Source: an uncultured Gammaproteobacteria bacterium
GTDB taxonomy: Bacteria > Patescibacteriota > Microgenomatia > Levybacterales > GWA1-39-11
Direction: 5' to 3'
Length of the DNA: 64,000 bases
Assembly: GCA_964409875.1 (NCBI GenBank)
Contig: CAYPEN010000001.1
Span: forward strand, 134,637 to 198,636
Part shown: positions 51,387 through 59,679 of the stretch, one piece after another
Layout: the number at the start of each line of letters is the position of its first letter
Numbering within the stretch: position 1 is the stretch's first letter
Notes under the pieces: model-generated
Databases searched by the model: none
What the model was told of the DNA's origin: nothing
The model's input: the letters and a program-made list of their open reading frames with translations, nothing else
Position numbers and translations under genes: made by a program

Positions 51387-54300
51387 GTGCAAGAAGAAAA
51401 TCTATCTTCTCAACCAAACGTGCAGCCTTCCCCGGTTGTTTTAAGAGGTGTAAGTGTAGTGCAACGGATATTCTCCCGCATACCAAGGCCGGTTATTATT
51501 CTTGCAGCCATTGCTATCGGTATTCCTGCCCTTTTGTACGTTTTGAAAGGACCCTCAGGAGGTACCCCGACAAGAACAAAAAGTGAATTTGAACTCGTTG
51601 AAAGTGCGCCTTCCGATCAGCAGAATGCAACTCCGGTAATAGCCCGGCCAACATTTGTTTTTTCAAAAAAGATAGGCGTAAGCGAGAGGGAGCTGGAGAA
51701 GTATTTCACGATGGTGCCAAAAGTAGAAGGGAGTTGGCACATTGAGAAGAACGGACAGGTTGTGTACTTTACATCGGGTAAGAAAAAAGCAGGTAAATTT
51801 CCTCAGACATTTGACTATCAAACAGCATATTCTGTAACAATTGACAAACGGTTTCATTCCGAAAATGGAAAAGAGCTGGCCGGGGAAGAAAATATCACTT
51901 TTAGAACGCAGCAAAACCCCGAATTTTCACTGAAGGCTAATAAAAGCATACTTCCTGTTCCTGTTGGAGATACGATTGATATCGAAATTCAGGATTATGG
52001 ACTTCTTGACAAAAAGTACGCTAAGTCCATTCAGCAACAGACGGCAGAGCCCTACAAAGTCACACTTCAGAAAGCAACGAAAGACGAGTTACTCTCTTAT
52101 TTTATATACAAAAAGAATTCATATCTTGCGGTAAATATAATACCTGATACGCTTGTGCGACGGGCAGCGATAACAACAACCGGTCAATATATGGCCAAAG
52201 GACAGAACGGTTATTCAAAAGTGATACGTGTATCAAATCCTGCCTTTAAGGCACCAGGAATCTATTTTGTGACCTTCTCCAATAAATACGGACGCGATAG
52301 TCTTTTTGTAGTAATTTCAAAGCACGTTGCACAGGTTATCCATGATAACAAGCAAACGTTTGTTATGACAACTGACAGTAATACCAACAAAGCGGTAGGT
52401 GGGATAAAAGTCGAGTACTACAAAACACAAAATAAAGTTGCCTTGCTTGGAGTTAAATCGACAAGTGCAGAAGGAATTGCCCAGCAAGACAATTTCTCAG
52501 ACGACACAGATTTTGTTGTGACAAGCCGAGGGAATGATATTGCAGTAACATCTACGCGTGGATACAGAATGGGGTTAGCATCGGATAAGGAAAGTGAAGT
52601 TTTTTCGTACACCGATAGACCGGTTTACCGCCCTGGGGATACTGTTCATTATAAAGCGGTCATTCGGGTGAGAGACGGAAATGGAGATTTCAAAATTGAG
52701 AGAAAGAAGTATTACGTGAAGTATCAGAGCAGTTATGATGCATCGAAGGGGGATTACAAAGAGGTTGCAGTTGATGAGAACGGAACGCTGTCATTTGATA
52801 CGGTGGTGCCATTTTCTGAGAACAAGCCATATCCCGGTATATATTTAGCTTCAAAAAATACAAAAGGCGAATATCTGTCATTGGATACTTTGCAGCTTGC
52901 TGTCGAGTACTACAAAAAACCCGACATGGATATAAGTGTTAGTGCAAATGAAAAGGAATATATAAGCGGGGACACATCGCATATGACAGTTACAGGTAAA
53001 ACAAATTATGGTAAACCTTTGTCCGGCGTAAAATTTAGCTATCGGGTAATGTTAGTTGACTACCAGGAAGAAAAAGACAGGAATGACGAGAGAATAGAAA
53101 AAGATATTTATAGTAATTATTATGGAGGCGGGAAAGAACTGGCGAATGGTTCCTCAGAATTTGATAAGAACGGAAAAGCTAGCATAGAGTTTTCCACCAA
53201 ATTGCCTGACAGCTTTATACAAAGCCAGGTGGCACTCCTTGAAGTAACGCCTACTATCGGTGCAATTCCTTCTTTTGGAAAAATAGTACGCCTGATACAT
53301 CGCGGAGAGTTTGCGCTCTTTTTTGACGGTATTGAGGCAAATACTTCTACCGGGCTGAGCGGCTATACTGTTGCACTTGACCACAATAATCCGAGGAAGG
53401 CTGTCGGAAACATGAAGGGTAAGTTGACACTGACAAAAAAGGAATACTATTCCGATAATGGGCAAGTCATAGAGACAAGAGATATAGAGCTTGATGGAAA
53501 AGGACGGGCCGGTTTTGCATTCCGCAACCTGAAAGAGGGGAGCTATGAGGTAAAGTCGGAATTCTTGGACGCAAGAGGCAATAGGGTGACGGGGACACTG
53601 ATGACTTACGTAGGAGCTCCGGTTCAATTGAGCGGCACTACAAACGTTATAGGCGTTTCTTTTGATAAACCAAAATACAACGCAGGGGAAACGGCGCGGG
53701 CTACTGTCGTATCAAATTTTTTACTGGATGATGTGTATGTTGTGATAGCAGAGAACAAAGGAGGTGCGACACGGATTGTTTCTGTAGAGAAAAGAAGTGA
53801 AGAGGAGAGAACCAGCTCATTTACCATTTCAATTCCTGTTAGAAAGGAAACCGTTGGTAGTGTAGGAGTTTTGTTATATACGGTGGCAAAAGGTGAGGTA
53901 ATGATAGGCCAAAATTCATTCATTGTTGAAAGGAAAAATGATAAGCTGACGACAAATATAAGTTTTGATAAAAAGCGGTATACGCCGGGCGAAAAAGTAA
54001 CGGTGAAAATTACTACAAAAGACGCGTCGGGGAAAGGAGTCTCCGCTGATAATTCTCTATCGCTAATAGATGCGGCTCTCTTGCAACTTGGAAAACTCAA
54101 GACCGGGATTGTCGAGCAATTTACCACAAAAGACACTTATATTGCCCTCAGCCACTATGACTCGTTAACCGGCATATATGCTGAAGAAGTCGGTGGAGGC
54201 GGAGGCTGCTTTTTGGAAGGGACCCAAATACTGATGGGGGACGGAACGGCAAAGAATATTGAGGACATAAGAATAGGCGATATGATATCTACCAAGTTGT

Positions 54301-56840
54301 CTGAAACATCAAAGGAAATGATACGAAATACGGTGGAGAAGACATTTGCCCACACGGTTACCGAATACCTCCTTATAAATAACAGATTAAAAGTTACCCC
54401 CATTCACAGGATTTATCTGAATGGGCACTGGGCGGAAGCATCAGAGGCAAAAGTGGGGGATATGCTTCTGGATGTCTCTGGCGCCCAGGTTGAAATTACT
54501 TCCATAACGAAAAATATTGGAATTTTCAGGGTCTATAACCTGACGACAAATCCCTCACACACTTTCTTTGCCGATGGAATGTATGTGCATAACGAAAAGG
54601 GTCTTGACCCCAGGCAAAATTTTGTCGATACGTTGTACTGGAATCCTCACATAAAAACAGACAGTAATGGAGAGGCAACCGTTAGTTTTAAGCTTGCAGA
54701 CAATGTGACTACATTTACAGCTCAAGCATTCTCTAATACAAAAGATTCACTTTTCGGGGAAGGGACCGCAAGCATCGTAAGCTACAAAGACCTGACAATT
54801 ATCCCGTCACTCTCTGCCTTTTACTATGAGCACGACAAACCCGTAATTTCGGTTATCGCACAAAATTCTACAGGAAGTGATATGGATTTGACCATTGTTA
54901 GCGGAATAAAAGAGCTAAGTGGTGAGAACAAACAGGACATTCATGTGAAGGGAAATGACCTTGAGGTGATTGATGTGCCATTTGATTTGAGGGATTTGAC
55001 AAAGAATGCCACCTTCATTGTTGAGGCAAGAGATAGAAGCGGGAAGGTTGTTGATAGTGTTCTTATGAAAATTCCAATTTTACCTCAAGGGAATATCTCG
55101 GCACGCTGGGAATCTTTCGAGAATTCATATGACCATGTGTTCCAACCCGAATTTCCTTCGCTTGATGCAAACCGCATGGAGGTGTCAATAGTTCCCAATG
55201 CCGCAGCAAAGCTTGCACAGCCATATTATGGTATAAGTACCTATCTTTCTACTCAAACAGGGCAACAACTTTTTGCATACTCGTATATTTTGGCAAGGAC
55301 GAGGGACGGATTTATTGATCCTGCTTCATATAATTACGCCCAAGATGTGAATGAGTTCCGGGATGCAATCGAGACGCTATCCGAAGGAAGAGTTGAAAAT
55401 ACGTGGACGCAGTCTGAGTATAATAATTTTTATGGTGGTGATTCTTTCGAATCCGCCAACCTGTGGGTTGCCATGGGATTTGAAAAGGCTATTGAGAACA
55501 AAATGCTTGACGAAGTTACAAACGCACGGGAAATGGTGGATAAAACCAAAGTGTATTTTAAGGATTACGGCGGCATCAAACCTCCGCCTCCACCGCCATT
55601 TTACCCAATGAGCCCGACACCCGCTTTTTACCCGACACCGGTAGTATCACTAACGCCGACACCGGTAGCATCACTGACTCCGACACCTTCAACTACTTCT
55701 TCAGGTATTGTTTTTGCGCCACCGCCTCCGCCGCCCGTAGTATCCTTTCCACCTGCGCCTACGGTTCAACCATATTATCAACCATATCCTATGCCCCCGG
55801 TGACCCGGTACTATACCGATAATGAAAAATTGGTACGGACATTGTTGTACGGGCAGTCGTTTCCTGACGAGTTAGGAAGTAAATTTAATGAAACGCCGGA
55901 AGGTTTGGCCTCACAAATACTTTTAGGGAAAGAGAATTTGATGCAAAAGCTTCTGAGTCTTCGTATCACATCGGCATCAGACCGTTATATATGGAGCGGA
56001 TACACTACTGCATCGGAGGAATTGCCGGTTCTGGCAATTGTTGAAAAAGGAACGCTTGAGGATGCCGAAAAAGCCATACGTGGAATATCATTTACAGAGG
56101 AGAGTGCCCAGCCGTTAACCCTGTACGCGGCGGTCAAATATGCAGAAAGGAAAAATATTACCATTTCAAAGCCAACTTTTAAGGTGTTAGTTAACGGTGA
56201 AAATGCTTTTGAATTCCCATCGAAGGAGAATGATAATAATGCCTATCAAAATTTTACACAAGCTCTCTCAACCAGAAGCAGCAAAGACGGGAAATTACAT
56301 CTTGAAGTAAAGTCGAGTGGAGGACTTCCCATTTACGGAACGGTAAGTGAATTTATCTATACTGGAGCCGGACACACTGTTGACAGCGACGATTCTTACA
56401 AAGCAGACATACAGCTTGTTAGGAGTTTTCGTGATATTGAGAGCGGCCAGACAGTCAGTTCTATCGGGAAAGGAAAGACCGGTGTGGTAGTGTTCTCATC
56501 TGAACCCCAACGTCTTCTGAAGACCGGTGATGCGTCTTATGCCCTCACGTATCTTATGGAAGACATGATAGCCCCCAACAATTTTTACCTGGATCAAAGC
56601 CAATCATATTACGACCCGCAATTTCAAAGTGTTTTGAAGAAGCTTTTTCCATCAAATGACAACTCCCAACCCGCTTATGAACTCCCCGGAGAATTTACTG
56701 ACCAGACCGTATTTTATAATAGAACCCGTTCAAGGGTAAATCTTCCCTACGTTGTTTTTAGCACGTCAGATGGGACTTATTACCGGCCTAAGACGAGCAT
56801 AGTGTTCCCCATTTTAGGTGTTGTTGCAAACGAAAAGTAG
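51387..56840 (+). CDS. Giant membrane-anchored alpha-2-macroglobulin-like protein (MG-domain array) with a Hint/mini-intein domain at the bait-region position and a Pro-rich segment
   Basis: 1817 aa with a GTG start and an N-terminal TM helix (PVIILAAIAIGIPALLYVL). It has repeated A2M_N/MG-type domain starts (VFSYTDRPVYRPGDTVHYKAVIR; VSFDKPKYNAGETARATVVS; ISFDKKRYTPGEKVTVKIT). The A2M post-bait domain signature RQNFVDTLYWNPHIKTDSNGEATVSFKLADNVTTFTAQAFS is present. A TED-like segment LAQPYYGISTY stands where the A2M family has MPYGCGEQ, so the thioester Cys is absent. There is a proline-rich block (PPPPPPFYPMSPTPAFYPTPVVSLTPTP...APPPPPPVV). Confidence 0.75.
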   Translation: MQEENLSSQPNVQPSPVVLRGVSVVQRIFSRIPRPVIILAAIAIGIPALLYVLKGPSGGTPTRTKSEFELVESAPSDQQNATPVIARPTFVFSKKIGVSERELEKYFTMVPKVEGSWHIEKNGQVVYFTSGKKKAGKFPQTFDYQTAYSVTIDKRFHSENGKELAGEENITFRTQQNPEFSLKANKSILPVPVGDTIDIEIQDYGLLDKKYAKSIQQQTAEPYKVTLQKATKDELLSYFIYKKNSYLAVNIIPDTLVRRAAITTTGQYMAKGQNGYSKVIRVSNPAFKAPGIYFVTFSNKYGRDSLFVVISKHVAQVIHDNKQTFVMTTDSNTNKAVGGIKVEYYKTQNKVALLGVKSTSAEGIAQQDNFSDDTDFVVTSRGNDIAVTSTRGYRMGLASDKESEVFSYTDRPVYRPGDTVHYKAVIRVRDGNGDFKIERKKYYVKYQSSYDASKGDYKEVAVDENGTLSFDTVVPFSENKPYPGIYLASKNTKGEYLSLDTLQLAVEYYKKPDMDISVSANEKEYISGDTSHMTVTGKTNYGKPLSGVKFSYRVMLVDYQEEKDRNDERIEKDIYSNYYGGGKELANGSSEFDKNGKASIEFSTKLPDSFIQSQVALLEVTPTIGAIPSFGKIVRLIHRGEFALFFDGIEANTSTGLSGYTVALDHNNPRKAVGNMKGKLTLTKKEYYSDNGQVIETRDIELDGKGRAGFAFRNLKEGSYEVKSEFLDARGNRVTGTLMTYVGAPVQLSGTTNVIGVSFDKPKYNAGETARATVVSNFLLDDVYVVIAENKGGATRIVSVEKRSEEERTSSFTISIPVRKETVGSVGVLLYTVAKGEVMIGQNSFIVERKNDKLTTNISFDKKRYTPGEKVTVKITTKDASGKGVSADNSLSLIDAALLQLGKLKTGIVEQFTTKDTYIALSHYDSLTGIYAEEVGGGGGCFLEGTQILMGDGTAKNIEDIRIGDMISTKLSETSKEMIRNTVEKTFAHTVTEYLLINNRLKVTPIHRIYLNGHWAEASEAKVGDMLLDVSGAQVEITSITKNIGIFRVYNLTTNPSHTFFADGMYVHNEKGLDPRQNFVDTLYWNPHIKTDSNGEATVSFKLADNVTTFTAQAFSNTKDSLFGEGTASIVSYKDLTIIPSLSAFYYEHDKPVISVIAQNSTGSDMDLTIVSGIKELSGENKQDIHVKGNDLEVIDVPFDLRDLTKNATFIVEARDRSGKVVDSVLMKIPILPQGNISARWESFENSYDHVFQPEFPSLDANRMEVSIVPNAAAKLAQPYYGISTYLSTQTGQQLFAYSYILARTRDGFIDPASYNYAQDVNEFRDAIETLSEGRVENTWTQSEYNNFYGGDSFESANLWVAMGFEKAIENKMLDEVTNAREMVDKTKVYFKDYGGIKPPPPPPFYPMSPTPAFYPTPVVSLTPTPVASLTPTPSTTSSGIVFAPPPPPPVVSFPPAPTVQPYYQPYPMPPVTRYYTDNEKLVRTLLYGQSFPDELGSKFNETPEGLASQILLGKENLMQKLLSLRITSASDRYIWSGYTTASEELPVLAIVEKGTLEDAEKAIRGISFTEESAQPLTLYAAVKYAERKNITISKPTFKVLVNGENAFEFPSKENDNNAYQNFTQALSTRSSKDGKLHLEVKSSGGLPIYGTVSEFIYTGAGHTVDSDDSYKADIQLVRSFRDIESGQTVSSIGKGKTGVVVFSSEPQRLLKTGDASYALTYLMEDMIAPNNFYLDQSQSYYDPQFQSVLKKLFPSNDNSQPAYELPGEFTDQTVFYNRTRSRVNLPYVVFSTSDGTYYRPKTSIVFPILGVVANEK
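54207..54593 (+). other. Hint (intein-like / BIL-type) domain embedded in the A2M-like protein
   Basis: 129 aa run from CFLEGTQILMGDG (block A, Cys1) through TPIHRIY (block B, TxxH) to VYNLTTNPSHTFFADGMYVHN (blocks F/G, terminal His-Asn). The following residue is Glu, not Cys/Ser/Thr, so this is not a canonical splicing intein. It is preceded by a GGGGG linker. Confidence 0.8.
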
Positions 56841-58563: not shown

Positions 58564-59679
58564 ATGGCAAAAAAGAGTCTTTTTACATCAGAATCAGTAT
58601 GTTCAGGGCATCCTGACAAAATTTGCGACAGGATAAGTGATTCTATTGTGGATGCTGCTATGTCAGAGGACCCGCATTCGAGGTGTGGCATCGAAACAGT
58701 CGCCGGGGCAAACCAGGTCTGCCTTTTCGGAGAGATAAAAACTTCGGCTAAAATCGATTACGAAAAAGTGGTAAGAGATACGATTCTGGAGTTAGGCTAC
58801 ACAGAGCCATCATGGGGTTTTTCAACAGAATCCGCTTTTTCAAATGATATCCATGAGCAGTCGCCTGAGATTGCAATGGGAGTAGACAATGACGGCGCAG
58901 GTGACCAGGGGATGATGTTCGGGTACGCGTGCACGGAAACGCCAGAGCTTATGCCTATCCCAATACGCATGGCACACGCGTTAACCCAACGGATAGATGA
59001 AGTTAGAGCCGGAAAAAAACTTAAATGGTTGCGGCCTGATGGGAAAGCACAAGTAACTGTCAGATATGAGAATGGAAAGCCGGTTGCTGTAGAAAAATTG
59101 GTCGCGGCTGTTGCACATGATGAGAAAGTTGATGCTATTGATGTCAGGACTGGAGTTATAAGAGAAATTTTTGAGCCCGTATTAAAAAGGTATAAGTTGG
59201 ATTTGCCAAAAGAGGGAAACATAACAGTTAACGGGACCGGCCTTTGGCATATTCCCGGTCCCGAGTCTGACGCCGGACTAACAGGCAGAAAAATTGTTGT
59301 TGATACATACGGAGGGTATGCTCGGGTTGGGGGCGGCGCATTTTCAGGAAAAGACCCGACAAAGGTCGATAGAAGCGGCGCGTATGCTGCCCGTTTTATC
59401 GCAAAAAACATTGTGGCTTCAGGCCTTGCTACAAAATGCGAAGTGGGACTTGCCTATGTTATAGGAAAAGCCCGTCCCTTAATGCAAACAATTGAAACAT
59501 TCGGGACGGAGGCGGTAAGCGAGAAAGCGTTACACGCATTTAAAGACAAGTTGATTGATACGTCTGTCAGGGGAATTATCGAGCGGTTGAGTTTGGCAAG
59601 ACCAATATACAAAGCTACCTCCTCATATGGCCACTTTGGACGCGAAGAATTCCCGTGGGAGAAGATAGTAGAGGGGTAA
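58564..59679 (+). CDS. metK: S-adenosylmethionine synthetase
   Basis: 371 aa. The N-terminus FTSESVCSGHPDKICDRISDSIVDA carries the MetK signature, and GGGAFSGKDPTKVDRSGAYAARFIAKNIVASGLA is the MetK signature 2 region. Confidence 0.9.
   Translation: MAKKSLFTSESVCSGHPDKICDRISDSIVDAAMSEDPHSRCGIETVAGANQVCLFGEIKTSAKIDYEKVVRDTILELGYTEPSWGFSTESAFSNDIHEQSPEIAMGVDNDGAGDQGMMFGYACTETPELMPIPIRMAHALTQRIDEVRAGKKLKWLRPDGKAQVTVRYENGKPVAVEKLVAAVAHDEKVDAIDVRTGVIREIFEPVLKRYKLDLPKEGNITVNGTGLWHIPGPESDAGLTGRKIVVDTYGGYARVGGGAFSGKDPTKVDRSGAYAARFIAKNIVASGLATKCEVGLAYVIGKARPLMQTIETFGTEAVSEKALHAFKDKLIDTSVRGIIERLSLARPIYKATSSYGHFGREEFPWEKIVEG

Follow-up and report, generated by a model that had tools for sequence, protein, structure and literature searches.

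The window analysed here, a stretch of 64,000 nucleotides (contig CAYPEN010000001.1, positions 134,637 to 198,636), is deposited as DNA of an uncultured Gammaproteobacteria bacterium and placed by GTDB in the Patescibacteriota (Levybacterales). It encodes an 1817-aa surface protein resembling alpha-2-macroglobulin (A2M) and the thioester proteins (TEP), which is interrupted by a Hint domain of 129 aa (Cys941-Asn1069, 54207..54593, + strand). Judged from its sequence, this domain is of the type-A bacterial intein-like (BIL)/PT-HINT autoprocessing kind and is located in the bait loop of a membrane-anchored, extracytoplasmic A2M/TEP homologue of a Levybacteria-like bacterium of the candidate phyla radiation (CPR). 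The most likely outcome of its activity, with somewhat more speaking for it than against it, would be excision through a Gly-Cys thioester and asparagine cyclisation followed by re-joining of the flanks by an amine; we infer both the cleavage activity and the re-joining from conserved residues.

Hint domain, host protein and insertion site

The Hint domain was recognised by direct reading of the sequence, by Pfam and Protein Data Bank (PDB) searches and by an AlphaFold2 (AF2) model compared with Foldseek, and the assignment lies far above chance. Block A (CFLEGTQILMGDG) opens with Cys941 (54207..54209, TGC), the predicted nucleophile of an N-S acyl shift, and block B (VTPIH) contains the TxxH motif Thr1004-Pro-Ile-His1007 (54396..54407). 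Block F (VYNLTTNPSHTFFADG, 54531..54578) has Asn1051 where class-1 inteins usually have Asp, and block G (MYVHN) ends in His1068-Asn1069 (54588..54593, CAT-AAC), the predicted succinimide-forming site of C-terminal cleavage. Five Gly codons (54192-54206) stand just before Cys941, and the C-extein starts with Glu1070-Lys1071-Gly1072 (54594..54602, GAA-AAG-GGT), which offers no nucleophile at +1; all these features lie on the + strand, as do those given below unless marked otherwise. In an alignment of 143 family members, to which every count out of 143 refers, Cys1, the block-B His and both residues of the terminal His-Asn are invariant (143/143 each), and the block-B Thr and the block-F Asn are each found in 142/143.

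PT-HINT is the best Pfam model (E 4e-14; 53.4 bits for the domain alone and 48.5 for the whole protein, with a cut-off of 27.7). It is followed by Vint, Hom_end_hint, Hint_2 (24.9 bits, under its cut-off of 28.4), Intein_splicing (24 bits) and the Hedgehog Hint PF01079 (E 0.047; 13.7 bits, rounded to 14 in the ranking, under its cut-off of 29.7), and with NCBIfam only short intein N- and C-terminal motifs were detected. The PDB sequence search placed 2LWY, a 'bacterial intein-like domain', at the top (E 3.5e-7), then 8W20 and the Tetrahymena BIL2 (~1e-4). The AF2 model of the Hint, built on a 17-sequence alignment, has a predicted local distance difference test score (pLDDT) of 86.8 and a predicted template modelling score (pTM) of 0.81; its best Foldseek match in the PDB is BIL2 (E 2e-11, TM 0.78, 25-27% identity) and the second is 2LWY (E 5e-10, 31% identity, TM 0.76/0.84), with splicing inteins (E 4e-8 to 1e-5) and Hedgehog 1AT0 (E 7e-6) lower. 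By these Pfam, PDB sequence and fold rankings, rather than by the original BIL-A block alignments, the domain is closer to BIL domains than to inteins or to the Hedgehog Hint (Hog).

A preliminary description of the window had read a Cys...HN domain at 54207-54593 followed by E-K-G, without a +1 nucleophile, and had called it BIL-like rather than a canonical intein. Both statements are borne out, as Glu1070 is read directly in one in-frame open reading frame (ORF), as Cys1, TxxH, His-Asn and the missing +1 nucleophile are all kept, and as BILs outrank splicing inteins in sequence and in fold. Of the circumstances that the same description had named as refuting it, a frameshift that hides a +1 nucleophile is ruled out, the ORF (51387-56840) being uninterrupted and continuing after the Hint for 748 more codons, into a recognisable A2M domain, with Thr1082 (+13) as the first Ser, Thr or Cys downstream of Asn1069. 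A sequencing error is ruled out by the same GGG/C...VHN/EKG junctions (slashes mark the ends of the Hint) in independent contigs, namely L001 (81% identity), L002 (80%), the partial protein P0001 (54%) and L003 from Collierbacteria (39%), and the Hint does not group among the splicing mini-inteins.

The host gene (51387..56840) was characterised by its ORF, by Pfam, by a PDB profile search and by Foldseek. The ORF list places its GTG start at 51387, whereas a 100% identical database protein (P0174, 1806 aa) begins 11 codons downstream, at 51420; the choice between the two has no effect on the Hint finding. Pfam recognises MG2 (aa 405-436), A2M_BRD, the bait-region domain that forms part of macroglobulin (MG) domains MG5/MG6 (PF07703, aa 757-901, 53655..54089, E 1.6e-15), PT-HINT (aa 941-1069) and A2M (PF00207, aa 1082-1169, 54630..54893, E 7e-10). 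A profile of the flanks with the Hint deleted matches C5, CD109, human A2M, E. coli ECAM/YfhM, TEP1, Salmonella A2M and C3/C4 in the PDB, and the match to C5 falls into two parts, one on either side of the region with the chain-processing site and C5a. In a 546-aa AF2 model the Hint (pLDDT 83-92) stands between MG-type domains, joined by low-confidence linkers (aa 896-939 and 1071-1082), and the flanks match A2ML1, A2M, CD109, C5, C4 and ECAM in Foldseek (E 1e-14 to 1e-12). With an array of MG domains together with A2M_BRD and A2M, the host is a member of the A2M/thioester-protein superfamily. Near its N-terminus is a hydrophobic signal-anchor, PVIILAAIAIGIPALLYVL (aa 35-53, 51489..51545; Kyte-Doolittle score of 2.55 in a 19-aa window), the sole such segment of the protein, and a comparable one is found in 100/120 full-length family members. 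Topology was deduced from this one anchor; the rest of the protein, including the Hint, is therefore predicted to lie, and the Hint to act, outside the cytoplasm.

On its N-extein side the Hint is preceded by a flexible, bait-like linker (aa 896-940, 54072..54206; AF2 pLDDT <50) that ends in Gly936-Gly940, and on the other side it is followed by RQNFVDTLYWNP (54612..54647), the conserved start of the MG6b/MG7 'A2M' region. The end of the Hint lies seven residues before Arg1076, which is kept in 142/143 members and is the equivalent of human A2M R732: the family sequence 'RKIFEDTAYWNP' (member P0045) aligns with human A2M RKYFPETWIWD at R732 (6TAV residue 732). The bait region of human A2M ends just before this motif, and the anaphylatoxin domain of C3/C5 occupies the same place. 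On this alignment the Hint is at the C-terminal edge of the bait region, that is, at the C3/C5 anaphylatoxin position. The 45-aa low-confidence linker before the Hint and the R..F.(D/E)T..W motif aligned to human A2M R732 mark the site as a putative protease-sensitive bait. In the characterised proteins A2M, C3 and TEP1, cleavage at the bait/anaphylatoxin site is the activating event.

The thioester site of the host is degenerate. Ser1288-Thr-Gln-Thr (aa 1288-1291, 55248..55259) aligns with the C-x-E-Q of relatives, and in a full-length alignment of 43 members its first column holds Cys in 23/43 and Ser in the subclade of the window protein. No CxEQ motif is found anywhere in the 1817 aa of the window protein, which to judge from its sequence is incapable of forming the classical thioester of the thioester domain (TED). 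As 56/116 full-length relatives carry CxEQ, mostly as YPYGCVEQ and often as their sole cysteine besides that of the Hint, its lack in the window protein represents a loss in its subclade. Cys941 is the single cysteine of the window protein. The TED-like part also contains a proline-rich insertion of 75 aa (aa 1398-1472, 55578-55802, + strand; ~36% Pro; KPPPPPPFYPMSPTP...PPPPPPVVSFPP...), and a similar stretch is present in the close relatives P0177-P0179 and absent from P0020.

Family, empty sites and descent of the Hint

An exhaustive search of 1.84 billion protein cluster representatives (50% identity clusters) gave 14,781 matches at E <= 1e-3 and 360 at E <= 1e-30, and ~139 of the best 150 matches are proteins of 1.6-1.9 thousand aa (kaa) that match the query in one stretch over BRD, Hint and A2M. 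Word-indexed homologue searches were insensitive, giving 18 matches with the window segment and 2 with the Hint-deleted profile. Seven named records, on which the CPR assignment of the family is based, include Candidatus Levybacteria, Collierbacteria, Woesebacteria, Parcubacteria and 'Patescibacteria group', and members are annotated as 'hypothetical', 'alpha-2-macroglobulin family' or 'polymorphic toxin-type HINT domain-containing'. One close relative, L001 (CAZMSF010000039.1), is labelled 'uncultured Gammaproteobacteria bacterium', and its protein is 81% identical to that of the window and in the 80% class relative to a Levyibacteriota metagenome-assembled genome; it is probably a mis-binned CPR contig. 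The hosts fall into three subclades, a thioester-bearing majority (CxEQ in 84/90), many of whose members have exactly two cysteines (those of the Hint and of the thioester), and two thioester-less subclades, one of which includes the window protein. A general replacement of a lost TED thioester by that of the Hint was considered and rejected, because about half of the family has both.

The junctions are strongly conserved on both sides. Gly occupies position -1 in 143/143 members and position -2 in 135/143, and Gly-Gly directly precedes Cys1 in 132/140. The +1 residue is Asp in 58, Gln in 41, Glu in 24, Gly in 6, Ser in 5, Lys in 3, Ala in 2 and Thr in 1 of the 143, and never Cys; Asp, Gln or Glu thus make up 123/143 (86%), Ser or Thr 6/143, and 137/143 (96%) have no nucleophile there. 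Position +2 is Lys in 138/143 and position +3 Gly in 130/143, and in 139/140 proteins with the Hint at least one of the positions +1 to +3 is Lys, the sole exception having Cys at +2. This substitution is seen in two sister members, P0073 and L040 (~aa 1073 of its ORF), which read VHN-E/Q-C-GGKG; no other Hint-bearing member was found to lack a Lys at these three positions, and the Cys of the two may mark +2 as a nucleophile position.

The length of the Hint is 129 aa in 109/143 members and its GC content is that of the whole gene. In the full-length alignment of 43 diverse members, 17/36 invariant columns fall within G939-G1072, and mean identity is 0.44 in the Hint against 0.30 in the flanks. 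Between the window and L001/L002 the proportion of nonsynonymous differences (pN) is 0.135 in the Hint compared to 0.16-0.19 in the flanks; synonymous sites are saturated at this distance. The catalytic residue set is, as these comparisons indicate, under strong selection.

A metagenome scan with a Hint-free profile of the C-extein gave 80 loci, 29 of them Hint-bearing. Six Hint-less, low-GC, family-like proteins (L018, L021, L025, L032, L060 and L069) are uninterrupted at the site, which reads AEGGGGGGG/EARNVFKDTAYWNP in L025, AEKGGGG/DDNVR in L069 and AEMGGGG/DDGPR in L032. None of the six has a Lys at the junction, and the +2 Lys and +3 Gly are kept only where the Hint is present. In a tree of the Hint-deleted flanks these six are scattered among Hint-bearing proteins. 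The closest pair, L060 (Hint-less) and L071 (with the Hint), is 84% identical over 1773 residues, with the site AKGGSGGG[C...HN-EK]GGFDTSR in L071 and AKGGSGGGGGGGGFDTSR in L060. Given such close relatives without it, the Hint behaves genetically like an intein. The preliminary description had further taken the GGGGG before Cys1 for a flexible junction of the Hint; the run is there, in a low-confidence linker, but it is an old feature of the A2M bait region rather than a property of the Hint. A poly-Gly run occurs at the same site in Hint-less A2M homologues, and more distant bacterial A2Ms read '...GGGGG-E/Q...R.NF' unbroken, so the run is a feature of the host that was split by the Hint. That description did not contain the A2M/TEP-like host, the bait/activation-loop site, the family size, the empty-site relatives or the +2 Lys, and these probably shift the role to be expected of the domain.

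With regard to descent, all 131 A2M Hints group together, apart from 42 related Hint domains of other proteins, in a neighbour-joining tree (this and the other trees are built on BLOSUM distances and carry no support values), which points to a single capture of the A2M Hints. Hint and host distances are correlated (Pearson 0.20, reached in 0/999 Mantel permutations), and the nearest-neighbour Hint is within the top five flank neighbours in 48/131 cases; the clustering of Hints has an adjusted Rand index of ~0 against host clades, and Hint identity is equal within and between host clades. This mismatch between Hint similarity and host clades could reflect saturation or exchange, and we claim neither strict vertical descent nor lateral exchange. 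A macroglobulin-like group of ~2.2 kaa (L071 and L060; P0097 and P0163) has the same Hint at the same site. It falls with Hint-less, non-CPR-like A2Ms in the flank tree, a placement that may reflect lateral spread of the Hint or an artefact of the tree. The nearest Hint relatives outside macroglobulins (P0002, P0003, P0089, P0042, P0113, P0164 and P0152) are proteins with 2-5 tandem Hints, separated by spacers of just 'KG', 'KGG' or 'KGGGG' (...VHN-KG-CFL...); some of these proteins end in a tail rich in Ser and Gly and a hydrophobic segment at the C-terminus. A Lys after His-Asn recurs in most of the wider Hint clade.

Proposed autoprocessing and its alternatives

Type-A BIL domains are defined by Cys1, a block-B TxxH, a C-terminal His-Asn and the lack of Cys, Ser or Thr at +1, and their ligation has been proposed to proceed by attack of the freed alpha-amine on the thioester (PMC4031507). 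In BIL2 an isopeptide is reported to form between the C-terminal Gly of the N-extein and a Lys, a reaction that also conjugates other proteins without ATP (PMC8616854). In the proposed mechanism, after export and folding of the window protein, Cys941, aided by Thr1004 and His1007 of block B, would turn the Gly940-Cys941 bond into a thioester, and Asn1069, aided by His1068, would cyclise to a succinimide, cutting the Asn1069-Glu1070 bond. A Glu at +1 does not allow trans-esterification to a branched intermediate, which rules out splicing of the class-1 intein type. Instead, the activated carbonyl of Gly940 would be captured directly by an amine, either the alpha-amine of Glu1070, the route proposed for the BIL domains of C. 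thermocellum, or the epsilon-amine of Lys1071, the route reported for Tetrahymena BIL2. The 14-kDa Hint would leave and the macroglobulin halves would be joined over a short Gly-rich bait loop like that of the Hint-less relatives.

Re-joining is favoured because Cys1 and the terminal Asn are both invariant even though a single cut breaks the chain, and the route through a thioester and a free amine would require both ends (PMC4031507). Moreover, the Hint-less family members are colinear through the junction, and the host therefore appears to work as a continuous chain there. Taken together, the invariant ends, the continuous Hint-less relatives, the Gly-Gly and the linked Lys led us to judge amine-mediated re-joining the most likely outcome. 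Several considerations weigh against it. In heterologous tests type-A BILs mostly cleave, with ligation a minor outcome (PMC4031507; PMC7664689), and a review states that they cannot ligate at all (PMC7765530). A break at the bait site activates every studied thioester protein, so that by analogy a cut without re-joining would also be sensible. The missing Lys of the Hint-less relatives could partly stem from deletion between the flanking runs of Gly codons, and in both AF2 models the flanks, with Lys1071 and the scissile bonds, are of low confidence (pLDDT <50). For the family as a whole the mechanism is a prediction from sequence conservation.

Cleavage alone is the main rival: the Hint would cut at one or both of its ends, the thioester would be hydrolysed and two non-covalently associated chains would result, as a self-activation or a two-chain maturation that sets off or prepares the conformational change and needs no external protease. 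There is precedent for two chains, as furin cuts C3, C4 and C5 and proteases cut the A2M bait. The Hint is located exactly at the bait/anaphylatoxin site, where cutting activates the characterised members, about half of the family keeps the TED CxEQ that such a cut would arm, and BIL domains are described as yielding 'predominantly cleaved products' (PMC7664689; also PMC4031507). We nonetheless regard cleavage alone as possible but rather unlikely, since one cut would be enough for it, yet Cys1 and the terminal Asn are conserved in 143/143, since a bait that always cut itself would spend the protease trap before any protease arrives, and since the Hint-less close relatives are continuous at the site and the conserved +2 Lys would be left unexplained. 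A decidedly less probable outcome is that a different molecule, such as a trapped protease, a surface protein of the host cell or the cell wall, supplies the Lys or other amine that resolves the thioester of Gly940. The membrane-anchored N-terminal half would thereby be covalently coupled to this target, the Hint acting as a second warhead and, in the thioester-less subclade of the window protein, as the sole one. CPR bacteria live attached to host cells, the macroglobulin is predicted to be exposed on the surface, Gly-Gly precedes Cys1 in nearly all members, and Cys941 is the only Cys left in a protein without TED thioester. Large CPR surface proteins have been discussed as candidates for host interaction (PMC13059738), and BIL2, the nearest fold relative, is reported to couple its N-extein, which ends in Gly-Gly, to lysines of several substrates in an ATP-free reaction (PMC8616854). 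Such an intermolecular reaction, however, needs neither the invariant C-terminal Asn nor a Lys two residues beyond it, the housekeeping neighbourhood hints at no partner or target, and the proposal is pure analogy. In a broader form, which we find unlikely though a little less so, the Hint would be no passenger but a built-in, ATP-free conjugation device, comparable to ubiquitin-type chemistry and to what is reported for BIL2, whose Gly-Gly thioester is captured either by Lys1071, the isopeptide 'splice' resulting in a branched bait loop, or by a lysine of a foreign protein. With a foreign lysine as acceptor, the covalent bond would let a CPR cell hold a trapped protease or anchor itself to its host cell, and the Hint would provide a thioester warhead independent of that of the TED, replacing it in the subclade of the window protein.

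The remaining explanations have far less in their favour. An ordinary class 1-3 intein, in which the lack of a +1 nucleophile is an artefact or is made good by a residue close by, would fit the single conserved site in a conserved host, the empty-site relatives, the flanks colinear with uninterrupted homologues and the members with Ser (five) or Thr (one) at +1, but it is extremely improbable: Glu at +1 is read directly and in four independent homologous contigs, the great majority of members have no Ser, Thr or Cys there and usually reach one only 5-13 positions away, the block-F Asp is replaced by Asn in all but one member, and BIL domains rank above inteins in sequence and fold searches. 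Hardly more credible is a pre-toxin HINT that releases the C-terminal toxin of a polymorphic toxin, in spite of PT-HINT as the best Pfam model, the NCBI name of one relative ('polymorphic toxin-type HINT domain-containing protein') and the PDB match to the umbrella-toxin-type protein 8W20. After the Hint come 748 aa of A2M architecture (the A2M domain, the TED-like region and C-terminal MG-like parts) in place of a short variable toxin module, this part is conserved and not polymorphic, and no immunity-like partner is evident nearby. Finally, the Hint fold could in principle be an inactive relic that serves as a structural spacer in the bait loop. This has no specific support and next to no probability, as the catalytic residues are invariant although the flanks have diverged to ~22% identity, whereas relics lose such residues, and as the Hint has been precisely lost in some lineages.

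Related systems, genomic surroundings and implications

Type-A BIL domains, reportedly described by Amitai et al. in 2003, share with the window Hint the fold, Cys1, TxxH, His-Asn and the lack of a +1 nucleophile (C. thermocellum 2LWY), as well as a block-F 'VYN' that is also present in the 2LWY alignment; the context of a secreted or surface protein is likewise the same, and so is the expected chemistry of thioester formation and Asn cyclisation, with direct capture by an amine possible. A near-invariant Lys at +2 is, to our knowledge, not a described BIL feature. Described BILs are found in hypervariable regions of non-conserved proteins (PMC7765530), whereas the window Hint occupies one conserved site of a conserved, widespread host with empty-site relatives. 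Type-B BILs differ in lacking block G and the terminal His-Asn, which is present and invariant here. BIL2 of the polyubiquitin-like BUBL locus of Tetrahymena thermophila (6Y75/6TMM) is the best fold match and also has Gly-Gly before Cys1 and a terminal Asn, and its thioester is reportedly resolved into an isopeptide by the epsilon-amine of a Lys, which may belong to the C-extein or to another protein. Unlike the window Hint, it is eukaryotic and cytoplasmic, has ubiquitin-like flanks and is described with a Zn-dependent switch, and the use of Lys is suggested here by conservation. The PT-HINT domains (PF07591, including the umbrella-toxin UmbC-type 8W20) are the best Pfam family and are autoproteolytic Hints of exported proteins; in contrast to them, the window Hint has no toxin module after it and no immunity gene, is internal to a conserved multidomain protein, and is conserved at both termini and not merely at the release end.

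Class-1 mini-inteins (Ssp/Npu DnaB, Mtu RecA) agree with the window Hint in fold, in blocks A, B, F and G, in a size of ~130 aa without homing endonuclease, in Cys1 and the C-terminal His-Asn, and in being in-frame at a conserved host site with intein-less alleles. The window Hint differs from them in having no Cys, Ser or Thr at +1, in the block-F Asn for Asp, in sequence and fold scores that are weaker than those with BILs, and in an extracytoplasmic host instead of a cytoplasmic replication or repair enzyme. Hedgehog/Hog has in common with it the fold (1AT0), the Gly-Cys-Phe N-terminal junction and a thioester whose resolving nucleophile is external or not a protein, but Hog has a sterol-recognition region and lacks the terminal His-Asn present here. 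Regarding the host, bacterial A2Ms (ECAM/YfhM, Salmonella A2M, YfaS/MagD) and eukaryotic TEPs (A2M, CD109, TEP1, C3/C4/C5) likewise have MG2, A2M_BRD, A2M, a TED-like region and a Gly-rich bait loop before the R..F.DTxxW motif. The proteins of the family differ by a Hint in place of the protease bait (A2M) or the anaphylatoxin domain (C3/C5), by an N-terminal transmembrane anchor instead of a lipobox and by being nearly cysteine-free, and the window protein also by the loss of its thioester (S-T-Q-T).

The surroundings of the gene are of the housekeeping type, and no functional gene partner was found around the Hint-bearing locus; downstream are a 111-aa ORF without Pfam match, VIT1 and metK. 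A SAM-I/IV riboswitch aptamer (RF01725, 58427-58537, + strand; 47.1 bits against a gathering score of 41.1) lies directly upstream of the S-adenosylmethionine synthetase gene (58564-59679). Antisense ORFs of 82-170 aa over the macroglobulin gene (53154-53627, 53624-54136 and 54155-54403, - strand) were treated as spurious.

A full-text literature search, which is of incomplete coverage, found no description of a Hint, intein or BIL domain in a macroglobulin, in a bait region or in Patescibacteria. Apparently new are the A2M/TEP host, the bait/anaphylatoxin site, the scale and conservation of the family in the CPR, the presence/absence polymorphism and the Hint-linked Lys. BILs have been known from few scattered variable proteins, with uncertain natural products; here a BIL-type domain occupies the same conserved site of a well-understood host in 139 clusters or more. 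The natural minus alleles and a candidate nucleophile, the +2 Lys, make ligation without a +1 nucleophile directly testable, and efficient ligation without a nucleophilic side chain at +1, if true, would provide a practical, traceless and sequence-tolerant ligation tool. An autoprocessing module at the activation site of A2M, TEP1, C3, C4 and C5 also suggests protease-independent arming or a self-repairing bait, neither of which is described in the literature searched. For the CPR, in which the leading candidates for host attachment are large proteins of the cell surface, the family adds a widespread surface protein with almost no cysteine, the one or two that it has being predicted to form thioesters.

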